A stretch of DNA of 64,000 nt from Vicinamibacterales bacterium (lineage in GTDB: Bacteria > Acidobacteriota > Vicinamibacteria > Vicinamibacterales > UBA8438). Positions 8,547 through 36,620 of the stretch are shown one piece after another. The first letter of the stretch is position 1; the number at the start of each line of letters is the position of its first letter. The position numbers and the translations under genes were made by a program. The notes under the pieces were generated by a model. It worked only from the letters and a program-made list of their open reading frames with translations, searched no databases and had not been told where the DNA came from. Location of the stretch: assembly GCA_965247955.1 (NCBI GenBank), contig OZ252042.1:2032323-2096322 (forward strand). Direction: 5' to 3'.

Positions 8547-8828
8547 ATGAGACAGACGACGCGCTCGCACCGCCGCTATCGTCAGCTGCGCGCGCGCGTC
8601 CGGCGCGACCACCCGCTCTGTGCCCACTGCGCCGCCCACGGGCTGACCGTCGCGGGCACCGACGTCGACCACATCATCCCGCTCTCCCAGGGCGGATCGC
8701 TCATGGACCGCGCCAACGTGCAGCACCTGTGCGCCGCCTGTCACGACGCGAAGACGCGACAGCAGCGTTCCCGCCGCCGAGCCGGCGCGACCATCCACGG
8801 CGACCTCGTGAGGCCAGGGGGGGGGTGA
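8547..8828 (+). CDS. HNH endonuclease (packaging-associated)
   Basis: CAHC...DVDHIIPLSQGG...NVQHLCAACHDAKT. Located immediately upstream of terS, as in cos-type HK97-like phages. Confidence 0.8.
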   Translation: MRQTTRSHRRYRQLRARVRRDHPLCAHCAAHGLTVAGTDVDHIIPLSQGGSLMDRANVQHLCAACHDAKTRQQRSRRRAGATIHGDLVRPGGG

Positions 8829-10053: not shown

Positions 10054-10106
10054 GCTGTAATTGTATACTGCGATATACGAACTGTCGAGCGGTGGAGCCA
10101 GGCGCC

Positions 10107-11870: not shown

Positions 11871-11886
11871 GAGGAGAACACCCCCG

Positions 11887-12168
11887 ATGACGAAAGAGCA
11901 CCGCGTCGTGTTTGCGCTGAGCGATCTGACGGCCATTCATCTGCGATGCGCGACGTGCGCCGCGCGGGTGGTCCTCAGCCTGGCACACCGTATCAGCACG
12001 CCGGAGCACTGCCCGGTGTGTGACGTCCGCTGGGTGCAGCCGGCCGGCGACCGGACTGCGGCGTGCCTGGAGGCCATCCGCACTTATCTGCAGAACGCGT
12101 CGCGTGACGCCATGCCCGTGGACCTTCTCTTCGAGCTGGACGAGAACGGAGTTGACAGTGGCGGATGA
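11887..12168 (+). CDS. Hypothetical small protein with Cys pairs
   Basis: RBS gagaggag upstream of ATG 11887. RCATCAARV...HCPVCDVRW. Confidence 0.45.
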   Translation: MTKEHRVVFALSDLTAIHLRCATCAARVVLSLAHRISTPEHCPVCDVRWVQPAGDRTAACLEAIRTYLQNASRDAMPVDLLFELDENGVDSGG

Positions 12169-13712
12169 TCGGCCGGGTCTTGTGCGGCGCACCCTGGAGT
12201 CCGTGGGCCTCGCCCGGTCGGAGATGACCTCGCTGGGGCGGCTCACCGCCTCGGCCGACGGAGCGAGCTCGGGCGGCCGCTACGTGCCGGCGGATACCAC
12301 CTGGTCGCAGATTCTTGACTACGCGAGCGAGGCGGGGGACGCCTGGCCGCTGGACTTCTACCGCGCCGGGTTGCCGATCGGCCGCGACGTCGCGGTCAGC
12401 TACGCGACACTGAATCGCTGTGTCACGCTGATTGCGGGCACCGTGGCGCAGCTGGTCACTGGAGGGAATCTCCGCGTGGTCGACCAAGACGGCCGTCGGC
12501 GCACGGGTCTCCAGGCGGACCGTGTGACCGAGGTGCTCGCGTACTCGCCGGACGGCGGGACCACACCGGCGCATCAGTTCATTGGCGATCTGGTCGCCGA
12601 CTACTGCCTCGACGGGAATGCGCTCATTGTGCCGACGGTGAGCGGAGACGGGACTCTCCAGCGACTCCGCCGCATGTCGCCCTGGGACAACGCCGTGACG
12701 TACGCGCGGACGGGTGAGGCGGTGTATCGGTTGACGCCGGTCGATGGGCCGCTGGCGACGGAGTATCACGCCGCGCGGGATGTGATTCATGCGCGCTGGG
12801 AACGACTGTTGCGGTCCGGCCGCACTCGGTCGACGCGGGACGGGTTCGCGCTGGCGCCGGTGATTGCCCTGCGACCGGCGCTCGATATTGGGCTCCAGGG
12901 AGACACGTACATCCGAAGAGTGGTTCCGGCGCGGCGCGCAGTCGAAGCTGTACATCAACTTCGACACGCCGCAGGGTGAGAAACCGCTCGTACTTGACGA
13001 GCGGAAGAAGCTTGTCGACTGGGTCCAGACGTACTCGCGCACGCGCGCACCGCTCGTGACCTTCGACGGGAAGAGCGGGTACTTGCAGGATACCCCGCAG
13101 GACCGCGAGGCGAAGGAGCTGCGGAAGTTTCAAGTGCAGGAAGTCGCGCGGGCGTTCGGTGTCCCCGCGCCGCTCTTGAACGTCGACATCACGAACTGGG
13201 GCAGCGGCATCGAGCAGTTGGCGAAGCTCTTCTTTCGCTTCGGGCTCCGCCAGCATCTCGACCGCATCCTGACGCCGTTCCAGGTGCGCCTGCTCCAGCC
13301 GGGCGATCGCTTCTGGGTGGACACGGCCGACCTGCTGCGCGGGGATGCCGACGCGATTCACCAGATGGTCATGGCGTTGCGCGGGGACGCGCAGCGGCCG
13401 GCGCTCGCGTCGCGCGAGGAGCTGCGCCATCTCGCGGGGTTGCCACGTGACGTCGACGGCGACCTGCCGGTGTGGCCACCTGCCGTGACGAACGCGTCCA
13501 CCGATCCACGGCCAGCGCCGGTTAACGACGGGGGGGCGGCCATGACGGCGACCGAATTTCAGGCCGCGCGGGGCGAGCTGGGGTTGACGATCGAGGCCCT
13601 GGCGGAGCGGCTGGGCGTGGACCCGCGCACGGTGCGGCGGTGGCAGGGTGGGGAGCGGACGGTATCCAGCCAGGCGGCGGCGGCGCTGCGAGGGCTCCTC
13701 CAGGCTGGATAG
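12158..13712 (+). pseudogene. Portal protein (HK97-type) with a frameshift near 12914 and an in-frame C-terminal XRE-like HTH
   Basis: The two ORFs 12020-12979 and 12864-13712 join as ...LQGDTYI/EEWFRRGAQSKLYINFD... Portal-like ...FGVPAPLLNVDITNWGSGIEQL... The last ~56 aa (MTATEFQAARGELGLTIEALAERLGVDPRTVRRWQGGER) are an HTH. Confidence 0.75.
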
Positions 13713-13740
13713 AGGGCCCCACCCGGAGTTTCGTCTGATA

Positions 13741-13852
13741 TTCGCCCGGACCAGTGGTCCGGACCGCCTGGTCCGGACTGGTCCGCCAGGGCGAAAAACC
13801 CCCTGAGTTTATTGAGGTGGTGGGCGGACCAGCGGTGGTCCGCGGCTGGTCC
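13741..13852. repeat. Array of palindromes built on the half-site CGGACC/GGTCCG
   Basis: ccggaccAGTggtccgg, ccggaccGCCTggtccgg, cggacTGgtccg, gcggaccAGCGGTggtccgc. The outer arms ttcgccc...gggcgaa enclose the first three. Confidence 0.7.
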
Positions 13853-13887
13853 TTGTCAGGGCGCACGCCTTTCTTCACCCTCGATAC

Positions 13888-14622
13888 ATGGATTCCAAGC
13901 AGGCGGCGCGGCTGCGCGCCCTCACGTTGGTCGACATCCTCCCGTCGGTCGCCGCGCGGTGGACCGACGCCCAGGCGCTGACGGCGCAGGCCGGCGAGGT
14001 AGAGATTCTTGTTTACGGGCCCATCGTCAGCGAGCGGGAAGCGGCCTTCGCGCGTGAGTTCCTCGGCATCGAATCGGCCACGGGCGAAGCGTTCCGGTCG
14101 GCGCTTGCCGCGATCCGCGGCGACGTGACGGTCCGGATCAACTCCCCGGGCGGCAACGTCCACGAGGCGTCGACGATGCTGACCGCGCTGCAGGAGCGCC
14201 GGTCGAGCGGCGCGGCGGTCAACGTGGTGGTCGACGGGCTGGCGGCGAGCGCGGCGAGCGTGCTGCTCACGGCCGCAAGCACGGTCCGGATCGCCGCGTT
14301 GGGCATCGTGGTGATTCACGAGATGCGCATGACGCCCGTTGCGGTGACCGGGACAGAGATGCGGCGGCTGGCGGATTTTCTCGATGAAATGAACGAGCGG
14401 TTCACGGCGTTGTACGCCGCACGGATGAAGCGGAACGACGCCGACGTGCGGGCGCTGCTGGCTAACGAGACGTCTTTCTCGGCGACGCAAGCGGTCGAGG
14501 TCGGCCTGGCGGACGAGGTGATCGCCGTCACGCAACCGGCGGCGACGAACACGACGGACACGGCGGTGACGGCACTCTTCCGGTGCCGCAACCTGCGCCT
14601 GGCGGCGCTGACGGAGATCTAG
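13888..14622 (+). CDS. ClpP-like head maturation protease (S14 family)
   Basis: VRINSPGGNVHEAS...GLAASAASVLL...VVIHE motifs. Position between portal and capsid. Confidence 0.85.
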   Translation: MDSKQAARLRALTLVDILPSVAARWTDAQALTAQAGEVEILVYGPIVSEREAAFAREFLGIESATGEAFRSALAAIRGDVTVRINSPGGNVHEASTMLTALQERRSSGAAVNVVVDGLAASAASVLLTAASTVRIAALGIVVIHEMRMTPVAVTGTEMRRLADFLDEMNERFTALYAARMKRNDADVRALLANETSFSATQAVEVGLADEVIAVTQPAATNTTDTAVTALFRCRNLRLAALTEI

Positions 14623-14632
14623 GGGGAAGCAG

Positions 14633-15657
14633 ATGAGATTCGATCCGAAAAAGCTGGCGGACCTCGTGGACGAGGAATCGCGGCTGAAACATGCACTGAC
14701 CGAGGTGAGCACGAAGCTCACCGGCCTCAAGGCCACCGACAAGACGTGGGACGAGGCGCGTCAGTCGGCCTACCTCATGGACCAGCAGGAGCATCAACAG
14801 CTGACGCGGGAGCTCCAGACGGTGCGCGCCGAACGGCAGCGCTGCGAGCTGCAGGAACCCGCGGCGGCCAAGCGGGCGTCAGTGACCGCGTTCGCGCGGT
14901 GGCTGCGCGGCGGGGAGACGGCGCTGGAAGCCCACGAGCGCGAGACCTACCTCGGCGAGATCACCGACGGCACGATCCCCGGTGGTGGCGGCCAGACGTT
15001 CCGCCTGCAAGCCGCGTCGGCCTCCGATGCCACCAGCGGCCAGGAGGCCGTACAGGAAGAGATCCCGCCGCGCATCATCGACCGGCTCGCCTTCTACGGC
15101 GGCGTCTCCCGCATGGCGCAACAGTTCCTGCCCGGCACCGGCGGCGAGTATCGAATCATGCAGATGGATGCGGCCAGCCAGGAGGGCGAGATCCTGGCCG
15201 CGCAGGATACCGCGGTGACCGAGCAGGCGCTCCCAAATATCGGCGTGCAAACGTTCGGCGCCAAGACGGCCAGCTCGAAGCCGATCCTGCTCACCCGGGA
15301 ACTCCAACAGGATGTCGTGTTCGACATTCAGACCTATGTCGAGCGGCAGGCGGTCCGACGGATGGGCCGGATCTGGAACAAGGCGTTCACGACGACGCAG
15401 GCGGGGACCGGGATGCCGGTCGGCGTGGTGTCGTCGGCGACGCCGGGGATCACCGCGGCGTCCCAGACGGCGATCACCTGGACCGAGCCGACAAACCTCA
15501 TCTACGCCGTCAACCGCGCCTATCGCGAGGCGGGCGAGCTGGGTGAGGGTGGGTTCGGCGGTGAGGGCGGCGGGATGCTGGGCTACATGCTCTCCGACGA
15601 TGCCGAGAAGGCGATGCGCGTGTTGGTCGATGCGGACGGCCGGCCGCTGTGGGTGCC
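14633..15657 (+). pseudogene. Major capsid protein (HK97 family), 5' portion, interrupted by an inserted island
   Basis: N-terminal coiled-coil delta-like region, then capsid core. Phage-like sequence stops after ...DADGRPLWVPS and continues as low-GC unrelated codons (FEFCKSLITKMLF...). Confidence 0.8.
15644..15657. repeat. Left copy of the 14-bp direct repeat ccgctgtgggtgcc (att core)
   Basis: Identical 14-mer at 25114-25127. A further 10-mer tccactcacg follows at 15715-15724 versus 25129-25138. Confidence 0.75.
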
Positions 15658-15826
15658 GTCGTTTGAGTTCTGTAAGTCATTGATTACAAAAATGTTATTC
15701 GCATGTTGGCCGCGTCCACTCACGTTTTCACATGCAATTGCTTGATGGGAACTACGCGGACCTCTGGGGACCCCTGAGCGGTATGGGCGTTGAGGCCCTG
15801 AAACCGCAGCCAAGGTTGCGAACGTC

Positions 15827-17330
15827 ATGAAGACGCCGCTGCTCGACTTCGTGCATGGGTTGGAGATCACGCAAGGTCGGTTGGCCGGCCAGCGGTTCGC
15901 GGTGTTGCCGTGGCAGCGTCGCTTTCTGCGGGGCGCGTTCCGGGCGGGTGTGTCGAGCGCCGGGCTGTCGGTGGCGCGGGGCAACGGGAAGACGACGCTG
16001 GTGGCGGCGATTGCGGTGGCCGCGCTCGTCGGCCCGCTGGTCCAGGTGCGCGGCAAGGTCGTGATCGTGGCGTCGAGCTTCCAGCAAGCGCGGATCGCGT
16101 TCGAACACATTCTGGCGTTCGTGCGGCCGTGGATCGCCCACGAGCCGAAGCGGTTTCGGATCTGGGACACGGCGCAGCAAGCCAGCCTTGCGGATCGGGA
16201 GCTGGGCGCGCGGGTGCGCTGTCTGGGCAGCGATCCGCGTCGAGCGCATGGCCTGGCCCCGGCGCTGGTGTTGGCCGACGAGCCGTCGCAGTGGCCGCCG
16301 AGCACGAGCGCGCGGATGCACGCGGCGCTGCTGACGGCGCTCGGGAAGATTCCGCACAGTCGGCTGATCGCGTTGGGGACGCGGCCGGCGGATACGGGCC
16401 ACTGGTTCTCGACGCTGCTCGGCGGCGGGCCCGGCATCTACGCGCAGTGTCACGCAGCCGCGCGTGACGATCCCCCATTTCAGACACGGACGTGGCGGAA
16501 GGCCAACCCGTCGCTCCGCTCGATGCCCGATCTCGAAGCGGCGATTCGGACAGAAGCGGATCGCGCGACGACGGACGCCTCGCTGCTCCCGGCGTTTCAG
16601 GCGCTGCGGTTGAACTTGGGTACCTCGAACACCGAACGGGCGGCGCTCTTGGCGGCCGCCACGTGGGAAGGCCTTGAGGCCGACGACGCGCCCCGCGCTG
16701 GCCCGTGCCTCTGGGGGATCGACGCGGGGACCACGGCGGCCATGACGGCGGCCTGTGCGTTCTGGCCCGAGAGCGGCCGCCTCGAAACCGTGGCAGCCTT
16801 TCCGAGTGCGCCGACACTGGCCGCACGCGGGCTGCAGGACGGCGTGGCCGATCTGTATCAACAGGATGGCCCGGCGGGGCGAACTCGTGACGCTGGGCGG
16901 CCGTGTCGTGCCACTAGGTGACTTCGTGCGCGTCGTCCGGGATCGCTTCGGGGTACCGGCGGCGATTGTCGCCGATCGGTGGCGCGAGGGTGAGCTGCGC
17001 GACGCGCTCGACGCGGCGGGGTTGCCCCGCTGCGCGTTCCTGCTGCGTGGCCAAGGCTACAAGGATGGGGCGGAAGATGTGCGGGCGTTTCGGACGGCGT
17101 GTCTGACGGGCCAGGTGAAACCGGCCGGGTCATTGCTGCTCAGGGCCGCCATGCGCGAAGCGACGGTGATTGCCGATCCGGCCGGCAACGAAAAACTCAG
17201 TAAGGCGAGTGAGGGCGGGCGACGGTTCCGGGCGAAGGACGACGCGGTGGCGGCGGCGATTCTGGCCGTCAGTGCCGGCGTGCGGCATGAGCGGCCCCGG
17301 CCGTCGCGCGTCTATCTCGGGGTGGCGTAA
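15827..17330 (+). pseudogene. Second-type terminase-large-subunit-like gene (copy B1), frameshift near 16860
   Basis: LPWQRRFLRGAF...ARGNGKTTLVAAIA (Walker A)...LVLADEP (Walker B). ORFs 15827-16921 and 16755-17330 join as ...DLYQQ/MARRGELVTLGG..., matching the intact paralogue at 25400-26908. Confidence 0.75.
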
Positions 17331-17611
17331 TGGCGGGCACCCGTGGCCGAACGGTGTATCGAGATCGGCGCTGGGCGCACGTCCGACGTGCCGTGCTCAA
17401 CCGGGCCGCGTGGCGCTGCGGGGTGTGCGGCGGTGTGGGGCGGCTTGAAGTCCACCATCGGCAGCCACTGGCTGTGGGCGGGCCCGCCTTTGCGATCGAC
17501 AACCTGGAGGTGCGCTGTCGGCGGTGTCACCTCACGGCGCATCATCCGCCCCGACACACCCCGTGGGATCAATTGGTGAACGAACTCTTGAACGAAGGGA
17601 TGCAGACATGA
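17330..17611 (+). CDS. HNH endonuclease (copy B1)
   Basis: WRCGVCG...LEVHHRQPL...NLEVRCRRCH. TAATG overlap with the upstream gene. Confidence 0.8.
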   Translation: MAGTRGRTVYRDRRWAHVRRAVLNRAAWRCGVCGGVGRLEVHHRQPLAVGGPAFAIDNLEVRCRRCHLTAHHPPRHTPWDQLVNELLNEGMQT

Positions 17612-18640
17612 CGAACGGACAGAAGCTCCAACTACGACTGAGTGAGATCAGGCAGTCGCTCAGCGAACTCTCGGGGCTTGACAGCCCGACGGACGCACAG
17701 CGGGCAGAGATGGCCACGCTGTCGACGGAATACCCCACGATCGAGACGCGCTGGCGGGCGGCCACCATTGCCGAGGCCGACGAACCAGAGACGCGCGCCG
17801 ACGACGGCGAAGACACCGAGCGGCGGGCGCTCGTCGAGCGGGCCGAACTGCGGAGCTACCTGCACGAGGCGGCCACCGGCCGCGCCGTCACCGGGGCCGA
17901 GTCGGAACTGCGCGCGGCCGTCTTTGGCGAACACGCCCGCGAGGGACTCGTGCCGTGGGAGGCCTTGCTGCCCCACGAGGCACGGGCGGATACGGCGACA
18001 ACGGCCCCCACGGACGTAGGGGCCTCGCAAGCCAGCATTCTCGGCCGGGTTGTTCGTCGGCACGGCCGCCAGCTATCTCGGTGTCAGCATGCCGCAGGTG
18101 AGCGTCGGCGAAGTCAATTACCCGGTGCTCTCGGCCGGCGTGTCGCCGGAGATGAAAAGCAAGGCCGCCGTGAAGGATGCCGAGGCCGCGACGATCAGCA
18201 CGACAGTCTTGGAACCACGTCGGCTCACCGCCCGATATTTGTTCAGCGTCGAAGACACGGCGCGGCTGCGCGGCATGGAAGAGGCGTTACGTCGGGATTT
18301 GAGTGGGGCGCTCGGGGAAAAGATCGACGATCAGATTTTGAATGGGAACGGCACGGCCCCGAACGTCAACGGGTTCGTGCACGCGCTCACCGCCCCGACG
18401 GCCCCGACGGCGATCGCCACCTTCGCGGACTTCGTCGGGGCGGCGAGTCAGGCGGTGGATGGCCGCTACGCGCGCAACCTCACGGGCGTGAAGACGCTCG
18501 TCGGGGCTGCGACGTACGCCTTGGCCGGCACACTCATGAACACGAGTGGTGACGTGGCCTTGAGCGACTACCTGATCGCGCGCAGCGGCGGGTTCCTCAC
18601 CTCGGCGCTGATTCCGGCTCCGCCGGCGAGCGCGTTTACG
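17608..18640 (+). pseudogene. Second-type major-capsid-like gene (copy B1): frameshift near 18047, 3' end truncated
   Basis: Coiled-coil N-terminus. ...ILGRV/FVGTAASYLGVSMPQVSVGEVNYPVL...RRLTARYLFSVEDTARL...DDQILNGNG is capsid-like. Similarity and GC drop at ~18640. Confidence 0.6.
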
Positions 18641-18795
18641 ATGAATTGTGGAGCGGAGACGCTACCACGTTACGAGGAGAGGTCAGCCGCTTCATCCTAT
18701 CTGCCCGAGGCATTCGCATCAGATCCTGAGCGACTCGCCAGTCCCGCCGTGTTTTCCGTCGCTCCAGACGGCACATGCTATTGTGAAGGCACGCG

Positions 18796-19338
18796 ATGAG
18801 GACTTTCGTGGGTCGCTTTCTGATACCCCTTGCGCTGTCAGGTGTACTGGTTGTTGCGCCCACACTGCGGGTGCTCTGCTACAGCTCATGCGTCCTCGAA
18901 GAGGGTCCGATGTCAGACACGATAGCTGCCTCGGATGCAGCGCCCGAGTGTCACAAACGCGACAGCCGTCACGATTCCACACGTGAATCCGGTTCTGCAC
19001 CCCCGCAAGGCGATTGCACGCATGAGGGTGACTCGTTCTCATCCGGCCTGTTAACTTCCGCGAAGTTAGTCGGAGATGACGCGCTGAGGATACCGGTGAT
19101 CGCGACGATCGCCGGCGGCCCACTTCGCGATCCGCTCGTCCGACATTCGTCGGGACTCCCGATCGAGACAGAGCGGCGATCGGTTACTCGGACGATTCCT
19201 CACTCCACTGCGGATCTGATCCGTCCACGCGCCCGACGCGCCTTCGGCGTCGGTGTCGTCGTTCCAAGTCACGAAATCGTAGGGCCCTCGGTCAGAAACT
19301 GTGACGGCCGGTCACCGCGCCGTCTCCAATTGGAGTGA
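18796..19338 (+). CDS. Putative secreted Cys/His-containing protein upstream of copA
   Basis: N-terminal signal-like helix FLIPLALSGVLVVAP. ...APECHKRDSRHDS...QGDCTHEGD. The extent of true coding is uncertain. Confidence 0.35.
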   Translation: MRTFVGRFLIPLALSGVLVVAPTLRVLCYSSCVLEEGPMSDTIAASDAAPECHKRDSRHDSTRESGSAPPQGDCTHEGDSFSSGLLTSAKLVGDDALRIPVIATIAGGPLRDPLVRHSSGLPIETERRSVTRTIPHSTADLIRPRARRAFGVGVVVPSHEIVGPSVRNCDGRSPRRLQLE

Positions 19339-19341
19339 CTC

Positions 19342-21066
19342 ATGGGTAGAAATTTTTCGAACGCGGCTGCCCGGCGACCATCGCGCCGGACGGTCGTCAA
19401 AGGACTGGCAGTCGGTGGCGCGGTAGCCAGTCTCGGCCTGTGGCGACCGTCCGCGTGGGCCTCCACCGATGTGGGGAGGCAACCGACCGCGCTCTCAGGG
19501 ACGGACTTCGACCTCACCATCGGCGAGAGGCTGATGGACTTCACCGGCTCACCCCGCCTCGCAGTCACCGTGAACGGTTCAGTTCCGGCTCCGACGCTAC
19601 ACTGGCGCGAGGGTGACTCGGTCACGCTGCGTGTGACGAACACACTCAGCGAGGACACATCGGTTCACTGGCACGGCATCTTGCTGCCAGCCAACATGGA
19701 CGGCGTCCCGGGGCTGAGCTTCAACGGGATTCGGCCGGGAGAGACGCACACGTATCGGTTCACAGTCCGGCAAGGGGGAACCTACTGGTATCACAGCCAT
19801 TCAGGGTTCCAGGAGCAAAAGGGGATGTACGGCGCACTCATCGTCGACCCCAGTGAGCCCGAGCCCTTCGGCTACGACCGTGACCACGTCGTGATGCTGT
19901 CGGACTGGACCGACGAGAACCCCGATCGGGTGTTCGCGAAACTCAAGAAGCAGGCCCACTACTACAACCTCCACCAGCGAACGCTCGGTGACTTCGTGCG
20001 GGATGTTCGCGGGCGCGGATTCGGACCGACCGTATCTGATCGACTGGCCTGGGGCGAGATGCGGATGACCCCGACCGACCTGGCGGATGTGACTGGCGCG
20101 ACATACACCTATCTGATGAACGGACACGCGCCCAACGGGAACTGGACGGGCCTCTTCCAGCCCGGTGAGCGCGTCCGGTTGCGGTTCGTCAACGGAGGAG
20201 CGGCAAGCTACTTCGACGTTCGGATTCCTGGTCTGAAGATGACGGTAGTGGCGGCTGACGGCCAGCACGTTCACCCGGTCACTGTGGACGAGTTTCGCAT
20301 CGCATCAGGCGAGACCTTGGATGTTCTCGTCAAGCCAGCGGGGCAGGACGCGTTCACGATCTGTGCACAGTCGATGGATCGGACAGGTTACGCCCGAGGC
20401 ACGCTGGCGGTTCGGGAAGGACTGAGCGCGCCGGTTCCCGAGGTCGACCCCCGACCCTTGCTCACGATGGCCGATGTGGGGCACGAGGTCCACGCCGGTC
20501 ACGAAATGGCCGCGATGAAAGGACACTCCGGCAGCGGTGCCATGCAATCCCATCCGGCAAGTGAGCACGGCAACCCTCTGGTCGATATGCAGACAATGCT
20601 GCCCGCGTCTCGTCTCGACGACCCAGGGATCGGCCTCCGTCGAAACGGTCGCCGCGTGCTGAGCTATGCGCATCTCAAGAGTCTCTTTGCCGATCCGGAC
20701 GGTCGCGAGCCAAGCAGGATCGTCGAGCTGCATCTGACAGGGCATATGGAGCGGTTCGTCTGGGCGTTCGACGGCATCAAGTTCTCCGATGCCGCTCCGC
20801 TGCAACTTACGTATGGTGAGCGAATGCGTGTCGTCCTGGTCAACGACACGATGATGGCTCATCCGATTCATCTGCACGGGATGTGGAGCGACATCGAGGA
20901 CGACGACGGTCAGTTCCACCTCCGCAAGCACGTGGTGGACATGCCGCCCGGCACCAGACGCAGCTTCCGCGTACGGGCCGATGCACTCGGTCGGTGGGCC
21001 TTTCATTGTCATCTGCTCTATCACATGGCAGCCGGGATGTTCCGGGAAGTGCGGGTTGACGCATGA
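19342..21066 (+). CDS. copA: Multicopper oxidase, copper resistance protein A
   Basis: Twin-arginine signal SRRTVVKGLAVGG...AWA. Copper-site motifs HWHG, WYHSH, HPIHLHG, HCHLLYHMAAGM. Confidence 0.9.
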   Translation: MGRNFSNAAARRPSRRTVVKGLAVGGAVASLGLWRPSAWASTDVGRQPTALSGTDFDLTIGERLMDFTGSPRLAVTVNGSVPAPTLHWREGDSVTLRVTNTLSEDTSVHWHGILLPANMDGVPGLSFNGIRPGETHTYRFTVRQGGTYWYHSHSGFQEQKGMYGALIVDPSEPEPFGYDRDHVVMLSDWTDENPDRVFAKLKKQAHYYNLHQRTLGDFVRDVRGRGFGPTVSDRLAWGEMRMTPTDLADVTGATYTYLMNGHAPNGNWTGLFQPGERVRLRFVNGGAASYFDVRIPGLKMTVVAADGQHVHPVTVDEFRIASGETLDVLVKPAGQDAFTICAQSMDRTGYARGTLAVREGLSAPVPEVDPRPLLTMADVGHEVHAGHEMAAMKGHSGSGAMQSHPASEHGNPLVDMQTMLPASRLDDPGIGLRRNGRRVLSYAHLKSLFADPDGREPSRIVELHLTGHMERFVWAFDGIKFSDAAPLQLTYGERMRVVLVNDTMMAHPIHLHGMWSDIEDDDGQFHLRKHVVDMPPGTRRSFRVRADALGRWAFHCHLLYHMAAGMFREVRVDA

Positions 21067-21917
21067 AGGGAACGAGGATCGTGCGCGCTGTGGCAGTGGC
21101 CGTTTTCGTCGCCGTATGGTCAGCGCTGCCCGATGCCCAGCAGGATCGACCGACCGCTTCTGCCGAGCACACGACCCACAAACGTGCTGGTCAGGAGCAG
21201 ATCGAGCCGACGACGCCCATCCCGCCGATCACGGAGGCCGACCGGGCTGCGGCGTTTCCGGACGTCGAGCCTCACGCGATTGGCGACAACGCGGTGTACA
21301 CGTTTGTTTTGCTCGACGAGCTGGAATGGCAGGGGGACCCGTCTGCGGGCGGGCTGAACTGGGACGCCAAGGGGTGGGTCGGGGGCGACCGAAATCGCCT
21401 GTGGTTCCGAGCGGAGGGCCAGGCAGATGACGGAAATCTCGACGATGCTGAGGCTCATGTGTTGTACGGGCGAGCCATTGCCCGCTGGTGGGATGTCGTG
21501 GTGGGTGTCCGCCAGGATGTGCGCCCCGGTCCCGCTCAGACCTGGGCCGCGTTCGGCGTGCAGGGGGTGGCTCCGTACTGGTTCGAGGTGGAGGCGACCG
21601 GCTATGTTAGCGACGGCGGACAGACAGCGGTTCGGTTGGAGGCGGATTACGAGCTACTGCTAACTAATCGCCTCGTGCTACGGCCACTCGTCGAGTTCAA
21701 TCTGTATGGCAAGAGCAACCTGGAACGAGGAATCGGCTCCGGTCTCAGTAGCGCGGACGTCGGCGTGCGGATGCGGTACGAGGTTCGTCGTGAGTTGGCT
21801 CCGTATGTCGGCGTGACATGGCACAACTCGTTTGGTGAGACGCGAGAGCTGGCTGAAGCGTCCGGCGACGGCGCATCTCGCCTGCGATTGGTCGCGGGTC
21901 TGCGGCTCTGGCACTGA
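21063..21917 (+). CDS. copB: Copper resistance protein B (outer membrane)
   Basis: ATGA overlap with copA. ...LDELEWQ...WVGGDRNRLWFRAEG...GVQGVAPYWFEVEATGYVS...GVRMRYEVRRELAPYVGVTW matches the CopB family pattern. Confidence 0.85.
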   Translation: MKGTRIVRAVAVAVFVAVWSALPDAQQDRPTASAEHTTHKRAGQEQIEPTTPIPPITEADRAAAFPDVEPHAIGDNAVYTFVLLDELEWQGDPSAGGLNWDAKGWVGGDRNRLWFRAEGQADDGNLDDAEAHVLYGRAIARWWDVVVGVRQDVRPGPAQTWAAFGVQGVAPYWFEVEATGYVSDGGQTAVRLEADYELLLTNRLVLRPLVEFNLYGKSNLERGIGSGLSSADVGVRMRYEVRRELAPYVGVTWHNSFGETRELAEASGDGASRLRLVAGLRLWH

Positions 21918-21935
21918 GCCGACCGACACCATGAA

Positions 21936-21973
21936 TTGTCCTGGACTCTGGACCTCACTCCAGGGTGCATACT
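21936..21973 (+). promoter_or_regulatory. MerR/CueR-type operator-promoter-like dyad
   Basis: Imperfect inverted repeat cctggact-N9-actccagg lying between a -35-like tggact and a -10-like catact with a long (~20 nt) spacer. Confidence 0.4.
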
Positions 21974-21983
21974 CTTCGTAGAG

Positions 21984-22100
21984 ATGTCGGACAAGAGGTA
22001 TCGCATCGGGGAACTGGTAACGCTCACCGGCTTAACTCCTGACGCGCTGCGCTTCTACGAGCGGCAAGGCGTGCTCGATGAGCGAACCCGCTCAGCTAGG
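21984..22100 (+). pseudogene. MerR-family regulator, N-terminal HTH fragment only
   Basis: MSDKRYRIGELVTLTGLTPDALRFYERQGVLDE... then similarity is lost. No dimerisation helix or metal-binding Cys. Confidence 0.6.
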
Positions 22101-22142
22101 CATGATCCGGGATCATCCGGGATCATCCGGGATGACCCCGGG
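22101..22142. repeat. 10-bp tandem repeat (gatcatccgg) x ~4
   Basis: catgatccgg gatcatccgg gatcatccgg gatgaccccgg, read directly. Confidence 0.8.
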
Positions 22143-22606
22143 ATGCGACTCGCGCGAGGACAACAACTTAGGGGGATCGGGCGACACAATTGTGGTGCAA
22201 GACTTTTGATCCATGAAAGTCCCTTCAAACGGCGTTTTCTGGGCGTTTTTGGGTGTGGCCGGGCCGGAGCCAGGTCATCGAGCTCGCCGCCGGTGGAGAC
22301 GGCCGCCGACACCGTCGGTGCGGCCATCGAGTCGGAAACGGCGCGCCTCGAGACGGAGACGCGCGGGCTGGTGGCTGATGCCGAAGCCGCGCTCGACGAC
22401 GCGCGCCCGGCGATCGACGAGCTCGATGACGAAGATGCCGCCGGACTGCGGGCGGACGTCGAGGCTGTGGAGTCTTCACTCGCCGCGGTCGAATCGGACC
22501 TTCAGGCTGAAGCCTATGCGGACGCCAATCAAGGCGCCCGGTCCGCCTTGTCCGCGGCCCGCGACATCGGGAGCTCGCCCAATGGGGCGCGGATTGCACC
22601 CGTGTC

Positions 22607-23539
22607 GTGTTCGGCAACCGGCTCGACACGCGCCCCGAAGACCCGGCGTCCCTGCGCAGCTTGGTGGCCCAGCGCACGCCCGTCTTGGTCATCATCGACA
22701 CTTTGACGCTCTTGGCGAGCGTGCTGGGCATTCGCGATCTCCACGGGGCCGGCGATCTCGGAGTGGCCTTAGCGGGCTTGGCCGCGCTCGCGCGAGACTC
22801 GGACGCGGCGATTGTCATCTTGCACCACAACCGCAAGAACCCGAGCGGCACGTCGACGACGGGTGACAAGTTCGGCGAATACCGCGACTCGACGGCGATT
22901 GGTGCGGCGGCCGATATGATCGTGTCGCTCAGCCCGGAATCGGGGGCGCGAACCCGCCGACTCACGCTCAAGGGGCGCTGGTTCGAGCCGACGCTCATCG
23001 TCACGCTCGGCCCCGAGGGCTACACGCTGCAACCGGCCGACGAGCCGACCGCCACGGACGAGACGACGGACACGCCCGCGCCACGCCCCTCTGACCAACG
23101 GGTGCTGCTGCACCTGCTCCGCTGCGACCCACAAGCGCGCCCCGGTGCAGCGGCGCTCGCGGAGGCTCTCGATTGCTCCGGCCGACGCTATCAGGATCTC
23201 CGCAAGGCGCTCGATGGGCTGGTTGATGCTGGCAACATCGACTACGACCAGCGACCCGGCACAACCAAGAAGCGTGATCAGGGGTATGCGCTGACGGCCC
23301 AAGGGCGCTCCCGAGCCGAGCACATGCGAATCGCACTGCTGAATGCGTGTTCCGCGATTTCCGCCAATGGGAAATTGAGCGGAAATCAGTCGGAAACCGA
23401 ATCGGAAATCGAGTCTGACACCAGTGGATTTCCATTTCCCGATTTCCCACAGGGGGGGGTGGGCGGAAATGGAAATGGAAATCCACTTAAGAATGCCAGT
23501 GTGGGCGGCCCCGATGGCGACGACTTCAGCCGGTTCTGA
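22607..23539 (+). pseudogene. RecA-like ATPase (AAA_25/RepA-type) of integrative elements, N-terminally truncated, with C-terminal winged helix
   Basis: Walker B-like PVLVIIDTLTLL and ...AIVILHHNRKN... are present but no Walker A upstream. C-terminal ...RVLLHLLRC...LAEALDCSGRRYQDLRKALDGLVDAGNI. Confidence 0.55.
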
Positions 23540-23567
23540 GCGCGTCTCGCTCAAGGGTGGCCTCACC

Positions 23568-23756
23568 GTGTCGGTTCAGGCGCTTCAGATCCTCTGGGAT
23601 CTCGAAGGCCGAGGGTTACAGTGCTGGCTCGATGGGGGCGTGCTCTGCATTGGCCCGACTGACATGATCACGCCCGACGATCGCGTGACGATCACCGACT
23701 ATCGTGATGAGCTGTACGCCCTGCTTGCGCCGAACGAGCGGGTGGCCTCAGCGTGA
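23568..23756 (+). CDS. Small hypothetical protein next to the integrase
   Basis: VSVQALQILWDLEGRGLQCWLDGGVLCIGP...ITDYRDELYALL. Start (GTG 23568) uncertain. Confidence 0.4.
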   Translation: MSVQALQILWDLEGRGLQCWLDGGVLCIGPTDMITPDDRVTITDYRDELYALLAPNERVASA

Positions 23757-23771
23757 GCGTAACGGGACCAC

Positions 23772-24965
23772 CTACCCGCTGAGGTAGGCCGCCCAGTCGT
23801 CCATCAGCCGGCGGCGGCGCTCGAATAAATCCGACCGCGCGTACGCCGCCTCGACCTTGTTGGGGTTGGTGTGCGCGAGCGCGGCTTCGATGACGTCGCG
23901 GGGATGATTCGTGCGTTCGGCGGCCCAATCCCGAAAGCTCGACCGAAAGCCATGTGGCACGGCCGCAATGCTCAATTTTTTGGTCCACCTCGACAGCGCG
24001 TTGTCAGACAGCGGCTTCCCCTGCCGGGGGAAGACGAGCCTGCTCCTGTCGCCCAGGCTCCGCGCGTCGGTCAGAATCGCGACGGCCCGTTCGCACAGCG
24101 GAACGCGGTGCTCACGCTGCATTTTCATGCGCGGGGCGGGGATGGTCCACACGGCCGCGTCCACGTCGACTTCGTCCCACCGGGCCAAGCGCACTTCTCC
24201 CGACCGGGCCGCCGTGAGCACCAGGAACTCAAACGCGAGCTTGATGGGGACCAAGGCAGCGGACGCTCGTACGGCCGCGATCGCGCTGGCCACCGCACTG
24301 TGGGACAGGGCGGGCATGTGGCGCTTTACGAGCGGCTTTCGCGGCCACGCCTGGGTCAGTGCGTCGCCGGTAGGATTGTCCAGCCGATAGCCTTGAGCCA
24401 CGGCCCACTTCATGACCGCCCCGATCTTCCGGCGCACGCGCCGCGCCGTGTCGGGCTTGGCGTGCCAGATCGGTGTGAGGATGGCGAGCACGTCGGCCGT
24501 CGTTATCTCGGAGACCACTCGCGTGCCGATGTGCGGATGGGCGTAGGTCTGAAGCCGCGCCTCCCAATCCCGCGCAGTCTGCGCGTTGCGCCAGCCGGGA
24601 CGGTGGAGCGCAATCACCTTGGCGGTGGCTTCCGCGAACGTGGGCACGCCCCGCGCAAGGTGCCGCTCAGCGAGTGGGTCTCCACCCGACCGGGCGAGCT
24701 TCCGGTTCACGAGCGCCTGTTCGCGCGCCTCGGCCAGCGACACGACCGCGCAGCCGCCGAGCCCGAGGGTCCGGGACCGGCCTCGGATCACGAGCCGTTG
24801 TTCCCAGCGGCGGGCGCCCGAGGGGTCGACGAGCAGATACAGGCCGTTGCCGTCGCAGTAGCGCCCGGCCTCGGCGACGGATCGGACAAAGGCGGCCGAA
24901 AGCGCCTTGTCGGGATGCCGCCCGCGTGGCTTGGTCCTGCGAGCTGTCTTGGGGTAGGTGTTCAC
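23772..24965 (-). CDS. int: Tyrosine recombinase/integrase, P4-type
   Basis: N-terminal ...YCDGNGLYLLVDPSGARRWEQR... (arm-binding domain). Catalytic region ...LTAARSGEVRLARW...HGFRSSFRDWAAE...EAALAHT...AYARSD (R..H-x-x-R..H..Y). Confidence 0.9.
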   Translation of the reverse strand: MNTYPKTARRTKPRGRHPDKALSAAFVRSVAEAGRYCDGNGLYLLVDPSGARRWEQRLVIRGRSRTLGLGGCAVVSLAEAREQALVNRKLARSGGDPLAERHLARGVPTFAEATAKVIALHRPGWRNAQTARDWEARLQTYAHPHIGTRVVSEITTADVLAILTPIWHAKPDTARRVRRKIGAVMKWAVAQGYRLDNPTGDALTQAWPRKPLVKRHMPALSHSAVASAIAAVRASAALVPIKLAFEFLVLTAARSGEVRLARWDEVDVDAAVWTIPAPRMKMQREHRVPLCERAVAILTDARSLGDRSRLVFPRQGKPLSDNALSRWTKKLSIAAVPHGFRSSFRDWAAERTNHPRDVIEAALAHTNPNKVEAAYARSDLFERRRRLMDDWAAYLSG

Positions 24966-25113
24966 AAACTATTCAACCAACAATTAATTTTATGAATATA
25001 GCGAAAGTAAGAGGAACAATCAAGACGATGAGTAGCGAAGATGTGTGTTTATTAAGCAATCTTACAAGAAATATGGCAGATGTTCTTGGAACGCCATGGA
25101 CAGCGAAAGCCTA

Positions 25114-25127
25114 CCGCTGTGGGTGCC
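25114..25127. repeat. Right copy of the 14-bp direct repeat ccgctgtgggtgcc
   Basis: Identical to 15644-15657. Contiguous 25-mer ccgctgtgggtgccttccactcacg here. Confidence 0.75.
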
Positions 25128-25248
25128 TTCCACTCACGAGGGGGCACCGTCGATGCTCAACGGCTATCCCTACGTCGTCAATGGCCACATGGACAGCGTG
25201 GCCGCAGGGAAGGTGCCCATCCTCTTCGGCAACTTCAGCTACTACGGC
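25114..25248 (+). pseudogene. Major capsid protein (HK97 family), internal 3' fragment
   Basis: PLWVPSTHEGAPSMLNGYPYVVNGHMDSVAAGKVPILFGNFSYYG continues the 14633-15657 reading frame logically. It ends again in low-GC unrelated sequence at ~25249. Confidence 0.7.
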
Positions 25249-25399
25249 AATAGGACAGGAATAGCCGTAACGCATTGCAGTAAATGCACTTATAAGATCG
25301 ATATGTCGTGTGAGGCTACGGTTCCGTCTACATGGGCCACTGCGGGGACCCCTGAGCGGCTTGGCTGTGCCGCGTGAGGGACCGGCGGGGGGAGTTGCG

Positions 25400-26908
25400 A
25401 TGCAACACACACGGACGCTGCTCGACTGGATCGGCGCGTTGACGGTGACGCAGGGGCGGCTCGCCGGGCAGCCGTTCGTCGTGCTGCCGTGGCAGCGGCG
25501 ATTCCTGCGGGGCGCGTTCGCGGACGGCGTCTCGAGCGCGGCCGTGTCGATGGGCCGGGGCAACGGCAAGTCGGCGTTCACGGCGGCGATTGTGACGGCG
25601 GCCATCGCGGGGCCGTTAGCGCGGGCGCGGGCCGACGTGGTGTGCGTCGCGTCGAGCTTCACGCAGGCGCGGATCATCTACGAGCACACCCTGGCGTTCC
25701 TGCAGCCGTGGCTCGAGACCGAGCCGTCCCGGTGGCGCATCCAGGATTCGGCGAACCGCGCGGTCATCGAGGATCGGACAACGGGGACGCGCGTCCGCTG
25801 CATCGGCTCGGACCCGAGGCGGGCGCATGGCCTCGCTCCGCTGTTGGTGTTAGCAGACGAACCGGCGCAATGGCCGGTGAACATCTCCGACCGGATGCGG
25901 GCCGCGCTCGACACGGCGCTTGGGAAGATCCCGCAGAGCCGGTTCATCGCGCTCGGGACCCGGCCGGCCGACGACGGGCATTGGTTCGCGCACCTGCTCC
26001 GTGGAGGGCCGGACGTCTACCGCCAGTGTCACGCGGCCAGGCGCGATGATCCGCCGTTCAGGAAACAGACATGGCGGCGAGCGAATCCGTCCTTGCCGCT
26101 GATGCCAGATCTTGAAGCGGCGATTCGGACGGAAGCCAAACGGGCGACGCGGGACTCGGCGCTGCTCCCGGCGTTTCAGGCGCTCCGCTTGAACTTGGGC
26201 ACCTCGGACACCGAACGGGCGGCGCTGCTGTCGGCCGGGACATGGGAGCGCACCGAGGGCGACGCGGCCCGTCAGGGACCGTGCATCTGGGGTATCGACG
26301 CGGGCGCGACGGCGGCCATGACGGCGTGTGCCGCCTTCTGGCCCGACACCGGCCGCTTGGAGACCGTCGCCGCGTTTCCGAGTGAACCGTCGTTGGCCGA
26401 CCGGGGCCTGCGGGATGGCGTGGGGGATCTGTATGCGGACATGGCGGTGCGTGGCGACCTGGTCACGCTCGGCGGGCACGTTGTACCGCTCGACGCCTTC
26501 CTGCGCGTCGCGCGGGATCGGTTCGACACGCCGACGGCGATTGTGGCGGATCGCTGGAGAGACGGCGAGTTGCGGGATGCGCTGGACGCGGCTGGCATTC
26601 CACGCTGCGCGTTCCTCTTGCGGGGCCAAGGCTTCAAGGATGGGGCGGAAGACGTGCGGGCGTTTCGGACGGCGTGCTTAACCGGCCGCGTCACACCTAT
26701 CGTGTCGCTGCTCTTGCGGGCGGCCATGCGCGAAGCGACGGTGATCGCCGATCCGGCTGGCAACGAGAAGTTGGCGAAGGCCACCGAAGGCGGGCGGCGG
26801 TTCCGCGCGAAGGATGACGCGGCGGCGGCGGCGATTCTCGCCGTCAGCGCCGGCGTCCGACACGAGCGCCCGAGGCCGTCGCGCGGCGTCTATCTCGGCG
26901 TCGCGTAA
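25400..26908 (+). CDS. Second-type terminase-large-subunit-like protein (copy B2, intact)
   Basis: RBS ggggggag plus ATG 25400. GRGNGKSAFTAAIV (Walker A), LVLADEP (Walker B). Collinear with copy B1 without a frameshift. Confidence 0.8.
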   Translation: MQHTRTLLDWIGALTVTQGRLAGQPFVVLPWQRRFLRGAFADGVSSAAVSMGRGNGKSAFTAAIVTAAIAGPLARARADVVCVASSFTQARIIYEHTLAFLQPWLETEPSRWRIQDSANRAVIEDRTTGTRVRCIGSDPRRAHGLAPLLVLADEPAQWPVNISDRMRAALDTALGKIPQSRFIALGTRPADDGHWFAHLLRGGPDVYRQCHAARRDDPPFRKQTWRRANPSLPLMPDLEAAIRTEAKRATRDSALLPAFQALRLNLGTSDTERAALLSAGTWERTEGDAARQGPCIWGIDAGATAAMTACAAFWPDTGRLETVAAFPSEPSLADRGLRDGVGDLYADMAVRGDLVTLGGHVVPLDAFLRVARDRFDTPTAIVADRWRDGELRDALDAAGIPRCAFLLRGQGFKDGAEDVRAFRTACLTGRVTPIVSLLLRAAMREATVIADPAGNEKLAKATEGGRRFRAKDDAAAAAILAVSAGVRHERPRPSRGVYLGVA

Positions 26909-27201
26909 TGGCCGGGCGACGGGGACGGACGGTGTATCGGGACCACCAATGGACGGGGGCGCGATCCCGTGCGTTGGCACGCGCGGCGTACCGGTGCCAG
27001 GTGTGCGGCGGCGCGGGACGGCTCGAAGTGCACCATCGGCGGCCGCTGGCTGTGGGCGGGGCCGCCTTTGCGATCGACAACCTGGAGGTGCGCTGCCGAC
27101 GGTGTCACTTCGCGGCGCATCATCCGCCCCGACACACCCCGTGGGATCGATTGGTGAACGAACTACTGGTCTACCGGGTCCAAGTCGGACCCCGTAGGTG
27201 A
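26908..27201 (+). CDS. HNH endonuclease (copy B2)
   Basis: YRCQVCG...LEVHHRRPL...NLEVRCRRCH. TAATG overlap. Confidence 0.8.
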   Translation: MAGRRGRTVYRDHQWTGARSRALARAAYRCQVCGGAGRLEVHHRRPLAVGGAAFAIDNLEVRCRRCHFAAHHPPRHTPWDRLVNELLVYRVQVGPRR

Positions 27202-27217
27202 ACGAAGGGATACAGAC

Positions 27218-27422
27218 ATGACGACTGGACAACGACTGCAATTGCGGCTGAGTGAGATCCGGCAGACGCTCAACGAGCTGTCGGGACTCGACACCCCGAC
27301 GGACGCACAGCGTACCGAGATGGCCACGCTGGCGACGGAATACCGCGCGAAGGAAACCCAGTGGCGGGCGGCCACCATCGCGGAGGCCGACGCGCCGGAG
27401 ACGCGCGCCGATGATGGCGAAG
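27218..27422 (+). pseudogene. Second-type capsid-like gene (copy B2), first ~68 codons only
   Basis: MTTGQRLQLRLSEIRQTLNELSGLDTPTDAQRTEMATL... parallels 17608-17812. Similarity ends exactly after ...ETRADDGE. Confidence 0.6.
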
Positions 27423-36514: not shown

Positions 36515-36620
36515 GCTGACGCGCTCGCATCGCCGCTACCGCCATCTTCGGGACCGCGTCCGTCTCGACCAGCCGCTCTGCCCACATTGCCAGGCGAACG
36601 GCGATTTGCTCTGGACCTAG
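36492..36620 (+). pseudogene. HNH endonuclease, N-terminal fragment
   Basis: MRRAGQTKLTRSHRRYRHLRDRVRLDQPLCPHCQANG... parallels the first ~37 aa of 8547-8828 (MRQTTRSHRRYRQLRARVRRDHPLCAHCAAHG) and then stops. Confidence 0.55.

Follow-up and report, generated by a model that had tools for sequence, protein, structure and literature searches.

What is a block of unrelated, integrase-bearing DNA doing inside the major capsid gene of a prophage? This question is posed by a 64,000-nucleotide (nt) stretch of contig OZ252042.1 from a Vicinamibacterales bacterium, the whole of which we call the window, where the HK97-type capsid gene of a prophage (here termed phage A) breaks off and resumes far downstream. 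The intervening DNA is an element, designated E1, that entered the capsid gene by tyrosine-integrase recombination at a 14-bp core, CCGCTGTGGGTGCC. The reading that best accounts for the whole locus, to which we assign a probability of roughly 0.8, is that E1 is a decayed phage satellite of the helper-embedded type residing in the capsid gene, together with a second element (E2) and a later deletion. Related loci are cited below by L numbers and database proteins by P numbers.

A capsid gene divided at a 14-bp core

The pieces of the phage A capsid gene (capsid A) and the repeated core are located as follows.

14633-15661, plus strand: 5′ part of capsid A, approximately residues 1-344 of 437 (PF05065; 95% identical to P0001)
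15644-15657, no strand: attL core, CCGCTGTGGGTGCC, an exact 14-mer
25114-25256, plus strand: attR core (25114-25127) and capsid A middle fragment, approximately residues 339-386 (Pfam profile positions 183-233; 95% nt identity to L001 11015-11157)

Several lines of evidence agree that these are parts of one gene. The open reading frame (ORF) at 14633-15745 matches positions 4-193 of the Pfam Phage_capsid profile (PF05065), and the ORF at 25045-25377 matches positions 183-233. When the spliced protein was used as a database query, it retrieved intact homologues of 437 amino acids (aa) that were covered end to end, with P0001 as the best match at 95% identity. By tblastn, residues 1-344 of the homologue align to 14633-15661 and residues 333-386 to 25096-25257. 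Alignment to intact homologues is collinear, with the left piece ending ...DADGRPLWVPS and the right piece running from PLWVPSTHEG... to ...FGNFSYYG, whereas residues 385-437 have no tblastn match anywhere in the window. Likewise, positions 5480-11031 of L001, which carries an intact related prophage, match window positions 10106-15660, and the match then resumes at 25114-25256, such that the two matches overlap by just the repeat.

An earlier, sequence-only reading of this DNA had described the break in the capsid ORF and its resumption at 25114, and the Pfam, tblastn and L001 comparisons all bear this out. Two ways in which that description might have failed can be set aside. Homologues do not naturally end at PLWVPS, since the intact 437-aa proteins continue beyond it, and the similarity at 25114-25256 is not spurious, as it reaches 95% nt identity to the intact L001 gene.

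The 14-mer reported at the two break points is indeed present in exactly two copies in the window, at 15644 and 25114, where shuffled sequences lead to an expectation of 0.01. It spans the codons for PLWVP and is also found in the capsid genes of L001, L002, L003 and L091. The DNA between the cores (15658-25113, E1) is 9,456 bp long. At the left junction the capsid reading frame enters 27 unrelated codons and then a stop, and the ORF on the attR side carries an unrelated N-terminus. Thus, as the sequence-only reading had stated, the 3′ end of the target is not restored. Imperfect homology continues past both junctions, which is typical of attP/attB pairs. The predicted E1 attP consists of 24966-25127 joined to 15658-15826, and the repaired attB would read ...GGCCGGCCGCTGTGGGTGCCTTCCAC....

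Empty sites and a second use of the same core

Uninterrupted versions of attB are present in L001, L002 and L091. The first of these is empty for both E1 and E2, and L002 is empty for E1, with its capsid gene continuous across the site. Exact look-ups with the integrase and the truncated capsid ORF of the window matched nothing on record. The closest match to the E1 integrase in the protein database is P0253, which is 98% identical and is encoded on L095, a contig from a different sample. There, past the integrase gene, come the same arm and core and then the 3′ part of a capsid gene that is intact to its stop codon and continues into connector genes. The integrase and arm of L095 are 98.1% identical to those of the window, whereas the adjoining capsid DNA is 87.6% identical. 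This difference is what would be expected if one element lineage had integrated twice at its cognate attB, and the comparison points to independent integrations into two diverged capsid genes at the same codon. The core, the empty sites, and this recurrence uphold the proposal that E1 arose by site-specific integration into a prophage capsid gene rather than a transfer RNA (tRNA) gene, and they provide the empty-site and junction comparisons that had been called for (empty sites in L001 and L002, the same right junction in L095).

The same observations bear on whether a prophage contig might simply have been joined to unrelated sequence during assembly. The source seems to be a metagenome-assembled genome (MAG), and several single-base frameshifts are evident in the window, both of which could invite this suspicion. 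Yet the right junction occurs independently in L095, the E2 junction occurs in L002, and an analogous nested arrangement has been assembled in L091. Moreover, both joins have the 14-bp core, correctly oriented, along with integrase-proximal AT-rich arms. We therefore consider a chimera to be excluded for practical purposes.

A family of small elements with their own head genes

Searches with the integrase and terminase sequences recovered seven intact relatives of E1 (L023, L076, L090, L091, L092, L093 and L094). The family unit is approximately 9-10 kb long and begins with a low-GC left arm, a leader with the invariant motif GGGGACCCCTG, and genes for a large terminase (TerL, ~500 aa), an HNH endonuclease, and a capsid protein (412 aa). 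These are followed by genes for an S78 prohead protease, a 104-aa protein, a portal protein (348 aa), AlpA, and a replicase of the DUF3631 or AAA_25 type, then by variable cargo (a TIR protein, a methylase/nuclease, and others), and finally by an antisense P4-type integrase gene. The conserved 104-aa protein between the protease and the portal is unannotated in Pfam and PHROGs. Genes for tail, holin or lysis functions are absent from the ~9-10 kb units of L023, L090, L091, L092, L093 and L094, and no Pfam or PHROG match to a small terminase (terS), head-tail adaptor or connector was obtained in the family (L023, L091). On the basis of this gene content, the family looks like a group of capsid-forming satellites.

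Its members appear to be common. More than 3,000 TerL relatives were found, and approximately 30 of the best 120 are located on contigs of 8-13 kb, which are about as long as a complete element and may represent free or packaged satellite genomes. A scan of JGI metagenomes with a TerL alignment returned only phage terminases at 24% identity. In IMG/VR, the TerL relatives were just 35-39% identical and had no terminal repeats, and no relatives of capsid A were found. The MAGs that contain the relatives bear labels such as Vicinamibacterales, Longimicrobiales and Latescibacterota, and the hosts probably belong to Acidobacteriota or Gemmatimonadota.

The motif GGGGACCCCTG is found unchanged in the leaders of all family members examined, approximately 57 nt upstream of terL, and it lies 100-110 nt from the left junction in every intact member. 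It could be a cos or pac site of the satellite or a regulatory site. We also considered a cos-like motif common to satellite and phage A, and rejected it: the only counterpart of GGGGACCCCTG in phage A, at 34924, differs by one mismatch and is not shared by L001.

The integrases of the family belong to a much larger set. P4-type integrases of this kind (loci L004-L082) are present in at least 4-5 copies, at 60-75% identity, in some single Vicinamibacterales or Longimicrobiales MAGs, and they are rarely next to a tRNA gene. This distribution suggests a large radiation of integrative elements that target protein-coding or intergenic sites.

E1 is a gutted member of the family

The features of E1, from left to right, are these.

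15658-15826, plus strand: left arm and leader, with GGGGACCCCTG at 15766-15776 (left-end alignment of nine family members, motif search)
15827-17330, plus strand: terL (large terminase), split by a 1-nt insertion at 16864 (Pfam TerL_ATPase)
17330-17611, plus strand: HNH endonuclease gene (PF01844)
17608-18670, plus strand: HK97-type capsid gene belonging to E1 (capsid B), covering residues 1-356 of 413 (PF05065; tblastn with the L094 capsid)
19342-21917, plus strand: cargo genes copA (multicopper oxidase, 19342-21066) and copB (21063-21917) (Pfam)
22607-23539, plus strand: AAA_25 (RepA/primase-like) replication gene, C-terminal fragment (covers no more than positions 128-193 of the Pfam AAA_25 profile)
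23772-24965, minus strand: P4-type tyrosine integrase gene, apparently intact (Arm-DNA-bind_3, Phage_int_M, Phage_integrase)
24966-25113, no strand: right, integrase-proximal arm (36% GC; 96% identical to the L095 arm)

This order is that of the TerL-HNH-capsid-protease-portal-AlpA-replicase-integrase family with its middle gutted. Read in two frames, the product of E1 terL has 81-94% protein identity to the TerL of L094, and the gene has 76% nt identity to the E2 copy. Capsid B has a frameshift near 18047 and is truncated at its 3′ end, as determined from the indel map and tblastn. The copA/copB stretch stands where the family has genes for the protease, the 104-aa protein, the portal and AlpA, and no homologue of the protease, portal or AlpA is present anywhere in the window. 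Hence E1 retains both att sites, the integrase gene, the HNH gene, and broken copies of terL and capsid B, and the replicase persists only as a fragment.

The copper-resistance module (19342-22100) includes copA with a twin-arginine translocation (TAT) signal, copB, and a MerR-type helix-turn-helix fragment (ORF start at 21936). Its GC content of 63% is close to that of the element.

The P4-type integrase and its AT-rich surroundings, which the sequence-only reading had pointed out, are well supported. All three domains exceed their curated cut-offs (Arm-DNA-bind_3 at 55 bits, Phage_int_M at 93 bits and Phage_integrase at 67 bits), and GC content is 36% in the right arm and 45% in the first 105 nt of the left arm, compared with 68% in the capsid gene. 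A promoter-like site at 25023-24995, identified by a promoter scan, faces the integrase gene. The sequence AGCGAAAG occurs twice in the right arm, at 25000-25007 and at 25102-25109, with the latter copy abutting the core, and it is kept at the equivalent position upstream of the integrase in the 75% identical L004 element (L004 ~9850). It is a candidate integrase-binding site. No repeat of at least 8 nt is common to both E1 arms, AGCGAAAG within the right arm being the sole repeat.

One detail of the att region had been interpreted differently. The 10-mer TCCACTCACG occurs at 15715-15724, inside the left arm, and again at 25129-25138, right after the attR core, and the sequence-only reading took the 14-mer and 10-mer together as a 25-bp repeat interrupted on the left by 57 bp. 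The recurrence itself is real, but the interruption is ruled out by the conserved length of the arm. In E1, GGGGACCCCTG lies approximately 105 nt from the junction, which fits the family spacing, and so the 57 bp between the 14-mer and the 10-mer is ordinary arm DNA. The 10-mer matches the capsid variant specific to the window, relatives having TCCACGCGCG instead. With 0.17 matches expected window-wide, its recurrence at this position is unlikely to be due to chance.

Perhaps E1 is not one element but two that were inserted in tandem or nested at the same attB. The left part would be what is left of a satellite, the right part an unrelated island with integrase, replicase and copper genes, and an internal deletion would later have joined them. 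Capsid B comes to a sudden end at 18670, and the 5′ part of the AAA_25 gene is missing. The AAA_25 fragment is 51-53% identical to its closest matches, which are genes that adjoin related integrases in L045, L046 and L069, all of them loci without the family head genes, and in L095 the DNA adjoining the 98% identical integrase is unrelated to E1. Set against these observations, the intact L094 element has the same layout of AlpA, AAA_25 and integrase genes, with an intact AAA_25 gene at the position equivalent to that of the E1 fragment. A single element with an internal replacement therefore suffices, and there is no third, internal copy of the core. We consider the two-element origin credible but unlikely.

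A second element in the same gene and a later deletion

The sequence-only reading treated the locus as a single simple island in an otherwise normal prophage. This view has to be abandoned, as the capsid gene holds two elements, a large deletion followed, and E1 is heavily decayed. The features to the right of the capsid A middle fragment are listed below.

25257-25399, plus strand: E2 left arm and leader, with GGGGACCCCTG at 25344-25354 (left-end alignment, motif search)
25400-27201, plus strand: E2 terL (25400-26908, intact) and HNH gene (26908-27201) (Pfam)
27218-27433, plus strand: E2 capsid gene, first 72 codons, up to the deletion junction at 27433/27434 (tblastn with L090 capsid B, residues 1-72 only)
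27434-30269, plus strand: what is left of the phage A tape-measure gene (from 28014, homologous to L001 residues 621 onward of 1327)

A 2-kb internal repeat links E2 to E1: the terminase/HNH/capsid blocks at 15837-17812 and 25416-27422 have 76% nt identity. The E2 TerL is 94-96% identical to the TerL proteins of L023, L090 and L091. Its insertion cuts the capsid gene again at 25256, 130 bp downstream of the E1 site, and its leader motif lies 87 nt from that junction, approximately 20 nt under the canonical distance. L002 has the same junction in a capsid gene that is otherwise uninterrupted, and homology to the intact capsid gene runs approximately 20 nt into the E2 arm, as at a real crossover.

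Might the 143-bp piece at 25114-25256 instead be a target-gene replacement segment carried in the E2 attP, with E1 and E2 forming a simple tandem at one core? Long segments resembling the target are common in elements that insert within genes (PMC10111431), and E2 directly follows the fragment in both the window and L002. Nevertheless, the fragment and the 5′ capsid piece have nearly the same nt identity to L001 (94.6% and 95.9%, respectively) and to L091 (89% and 88%). Because both pieces are about equally similar to each reference, the 143-bp piece is best taken as phage DNA. The E2 arm that starts at 25257 lies at a near-canonical distance from its leader motif, the partial homology that passes 25256 into the arm resembles that of a true crossover, and the supposed replacement would not restore the gene. 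A capsid fragment carried by E2 was rejected on the grounds of the crossover homology and equal identities, and we judge this arrangement to be highly improbable.

The extent of the deletion is evident from L001, whose late operon is ordered HNH, terS, TerL, portal, ClpP protease, capsid, connectors, tail completion, tail tube, chaperones and tape measure. In the window, E1 sits between the portal/ClpP protease genes and the tape-measure remnant of phage A. Approximately 5.9 kb of L001 (11157-17013) is without a counterpart in the window, and this DNA comprises the capsid 3′ end, the connectors, tail completion, tail tube and chaperone genes, and the 5′ part of the tape-measure gene. At 27433/27434 the E2 capsid gene runs directly into the middle part of the phage tape-measure gene. 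A single later deletion accounts for all of these features: it removed this phage DNA, head-tail and tail-tube genes included, along with the remainder of E2.

Regarding the order of events, E2 and the capsid gene are each ~11% diverged from their counterparts in L002, and this similar divergence makes a single, old E2 insertion possible. By comparison, the E1 integrase is 98% identical to that of L095, and so E1 looks like the younger arrival of the two.

Choice of target across the family

An intact example of the nested arrangement exists. In L091, an intact family member lies inside an apparently intact relative of phage A, between the tail-completion and tail-tube genes, with a core of ~14 bp in the last codons of the tail-completion gene. 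In L003, a 5′ fragment of terL is fused to alpA right after the connector genes of another phage A relative. Thus, at least three distinct sites within a 6-kb stretch of the phage A-type late operon have been used. Three of them fall at codons ~340 and ~384 of the capsid gene and at the 3′ end of the tail-completion gene. In all embedded cases the satellite head genes are co-oriented with the phage late genes.

In L003 (10862-12443) there is also a capsid A homologue that is broken by an IS256-family transposase gene (Pfam Transposase_mut) approximately 25 nt downstream of CCGCTGTGGGTGCC.

The integrase identities group by site, with 72-94% among the tRNA users, 74-79% among L091, L090 and L023, and 99% for E1 with L095. 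From this grouping it follows that late-gene targeting arose more than once in the family. We also entertained the idea that the integrase family as a whole targets phage A, and discarded it, since 79 loci from representative genomes are without capsid A, other phage A late genes or the core nearby. Embedding in late genes is therefore an option for the family and not its rule.

A less eventful history should be weighed here, namely that E1 is a generic copper-cargo island that entered by accident at a secondary site, the capsid gene merely resembling its normal attB, with no functional link to the phage. The interior of E1 consists mostly of cargo or debris, integrases related to its own are very abundant and occupy many non-phage sites, and off-target events are documented for the helper-embedded islands discussed below (PMC10111431). 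However, the same integrase lineage is found at the same core in a second, diverged capsid gene (L095), and no other site with CCGCTGTGGGTGCC was found beside any related integrase. Furthermore, E1 starts on the left with the canonical arm of the family, next to which come terL, HNH and capsid genes, and both E2 and the L091 element also reside in late genes of the same phage type. Accidental integration thus seems improbable.

Relationship to known satellites and islands

The sequence-only reading did not recognise this as a described strategy, but a closely similar one was published in 2023. Helper-embedded phage-inducible chromosomal islands (HE-PICIs) were described by Tommasini, Mageeney and Williams (PMC10111431) and have been partly tested experimentally. 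The founder, Eco567.11capE of E. coli NRG857c, is an 11-kb phage-inducible chromosomal island (PICI) that lies in a lambda-like capsid gene and has its own capsid gene (PMC10111431). HE-PICIs carry no replacement sequence for the interrupted gene, one helper holds two of them, many helpers look truncated, and relatives reside at tRNA or chromosomal sites (PMC10111431). All described HE-PICIs come from Enterobacteriaceae.

The likeness to our locus is extensive. In both cases, an integrase-bearing satellite of ~10-11 kb disrupts a prophage late gene, the identity block is short (10 bp in the HE-PICI, 14 bp in E1), and there is no replacement sequence. Both groups include related elements that use several late-gene sites, two satellites in one helper, helpers that are often truncated, and relatives at tRNA or chromosomal sites.

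The differences are equally clear. The integrases of E1 and L091 are only 25% and 23% identical by BLASTP to that of 11capE (NC_017634 1199503-1200738) and fall outside that clade. The doubled HE-PICI attP motif TGTATTGC (tgTGTATTGCa) is absent from the attP sequences reconstructed for E1 and the L091 element, also when one mismatch is allowed. HE-PICI zones are arranged in the order integrase, AlpA, Bro, replication and late genes, with the integrase gene co-oriented with the helper late gene. In contrast, the E1 family has the inverted order, with head and packaging genes first and the integrase gene last and antisense, such that only the non-integrase genes are co-oriented with the late operon. 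The E1 family also has its own TerL, HNH, portal and protease genes, its helper would not be lambdoid, and its hosts appear to be of Acidobacteriota or Gemmatimonadota type rather than Enterobacteriaceae.

By gene content the family comes closer to the capsid-forming PICIs (cfPICIs), as judged against the core set used by SatelliteFinder (de Sousa et al. 2023, PMC10085698). Intact family members are small elements with integrase, AlpA, primase/replicase, HNH, TerL, capsid, protease and portal genes and with no tail or holin genes. They differ in size (9-10 kb, compared with a cfPICI median of 14 kb) and gene order, in that terS, a head-tail adaptor and a connector are not recognised, in their occurrence outside Proteobacteria and Firmicutes, and in having only a presumed dependence on a helper. 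The locus would work like an HE-PICI and the family looks like cfPICIs, yet E1 is not a member of the described HE-PICI clade.

Two further classes deserve comparison. The family shares its integrase domain architecture with P4-type islands that target tRNA genes, and sister elements are located at the 3′ ends of tRNA-Gln and tRNA-Glu. Unlike such islands, E1, E2 and the L091 element target phage late genes, and E1 and E2 destroy their target. 'Regulated gene integrity' elements, a class named in PMC10111431, likewise interrupt a gene that is expressed only after precise excision. In the case of E1, the target gene belongs to another mobile element, and here it is beyond rebuilding because its 3′ end has been deleted.

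A proposed life-style and the points that weigh against it

The mechanism we envision derives from the anatomy of the family and from the experimentally studied E. coli analogue. An embedded satellite would be replicated passively along with its induced helper, and perhaps would be transcribed by read-through from the co-oriented late operon. Production of helper capsids would be prevented until the satellite excises, and the satellite might then package itself in its own capsids, borrowing only tails and lysis functions. The suggestion that an element of this kind both hitch-hikes on a phage and disables it is plausible in this light, and the same logic has been proposed for HE-PICIs (PMC10111431). 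In the window itself none of the partners is still alive, and the locus is a fossil that may have been kept for its copper-resistance genes.

Several observations weigh against the interpretation of E1 as a decayed embedded satellite of phage A. Satellite status is deduced from gene content (no tail or lysis genes; integrase, AlpA and replicase genes present), and the family has no recognised terS or head-tail adaptor. E1 is without AlpA, portal and protease genes, and for this element the proposed behaviour is now impossible. The case for phage A as the helper is one of physical association. The right third of E1, with the AAA_25 fragment and integrase gene, resembles modules of elements outside the family, and E1 may be a fusion of two elements. 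Among the members found without reference to the capsid gene, just one of the seven (L091) resides in a phage A prophage. The other six are located at tRNA-Gln (two), at tRNA-Glu, beside a tRNA-like 3′ end (L093, which was judged by eye and was not called by ARAGORN), or in chromosomal genes. Phage A late genes are lacking near all 79 loci whose integrases are 60-75% identical. Lastly, the E1 attL junction has been seen in this window only, and the single-base frameshifts could be long-read assembly errors.

A broader proposal can be put forward only tentatively, with slightly less than even confidence. Widespread capsid-forming satellites outside Proteobacteria and Firmicutes may independently and repeatedly have evolved late-gene integration into one lineage of HK97-type siphophage helpers, inserting themselves in the late operon, blocking production of helper capsids and borrowing only the tails. 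If true, the helper-embedded life-style would have arisen convergently, by way of an unrelated integrase lineage and with the architecture inverted, and embedding would be a general solution to the satellite's problem of timing and finding its helper.

The concept of a helper-embedded satellite is already published. What is new is the lineage, the capsid-forming architecture with the integrase gene last, the independent origin of the integrase, and the double occupancy of one capsid gene. HE-PICIs have so far been documented only for one integrase clade, in Enterobacteriaceae and with lambdoid helpers, the literature search having turned up one primary study of them and its preprint. E1 and its relatives suggest an independent origin in distant, mostly uncultured lineages of soil or sponge type, among satellites that would build their own heads. 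For annotation, the lesson is that a broken capsid gene plus an extra terminase gene in a prophage may reflect a nested satellite and not a fault of assembly. Fossils of this kind can also carry adaptive cargo, as with the copper-resistance genes of E1.

Surroundings of the prophage

Upstream of the capsid gene, the phage A TerL gene (10092-11870) is split between overlapping ORFs near 11228, and the portal gene (12020-13712) has a net +1 near 12915. These breaks reflect either decay of the prophage or indel errors in long reads. The C-terminus of the phage A portal (12864-13712) is a helix-turn-helix domain (Pfam HTH_3/HTH_23), which is an unusual fusion, and a helix-turn-helix domain is likewise flagged in the portal proteins of L001 and L002 (509-516 aa). 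There are no tRNA genes in the window, and Rfam has no match in 8000-37500.

A 70-bp direct repeat with 81% identity is found at 8558-8627 and 36518-36585 and corresponds to the 5′ end of the phage A HNH gene. The second copy is located at the right end of the high-GC block, before GC content drops from 68% to 56% near 36.7 kb. The lysis genes, which are directly upstream of the HNH gene in L001 and L002, are at 34.5-36.5 kb in the window. The repeat and the displaced lysis genes possibly mark the prophage ends, a tandem remnant or a rearrangement. Chromosomal genes beyond 37 kb look intact, and the flank (37077-64000) begins with a DNA polymerase III delta′ gene (holB-like) and continues with a sugar-nucleotide/polysaccharide cluster of 56% GC.

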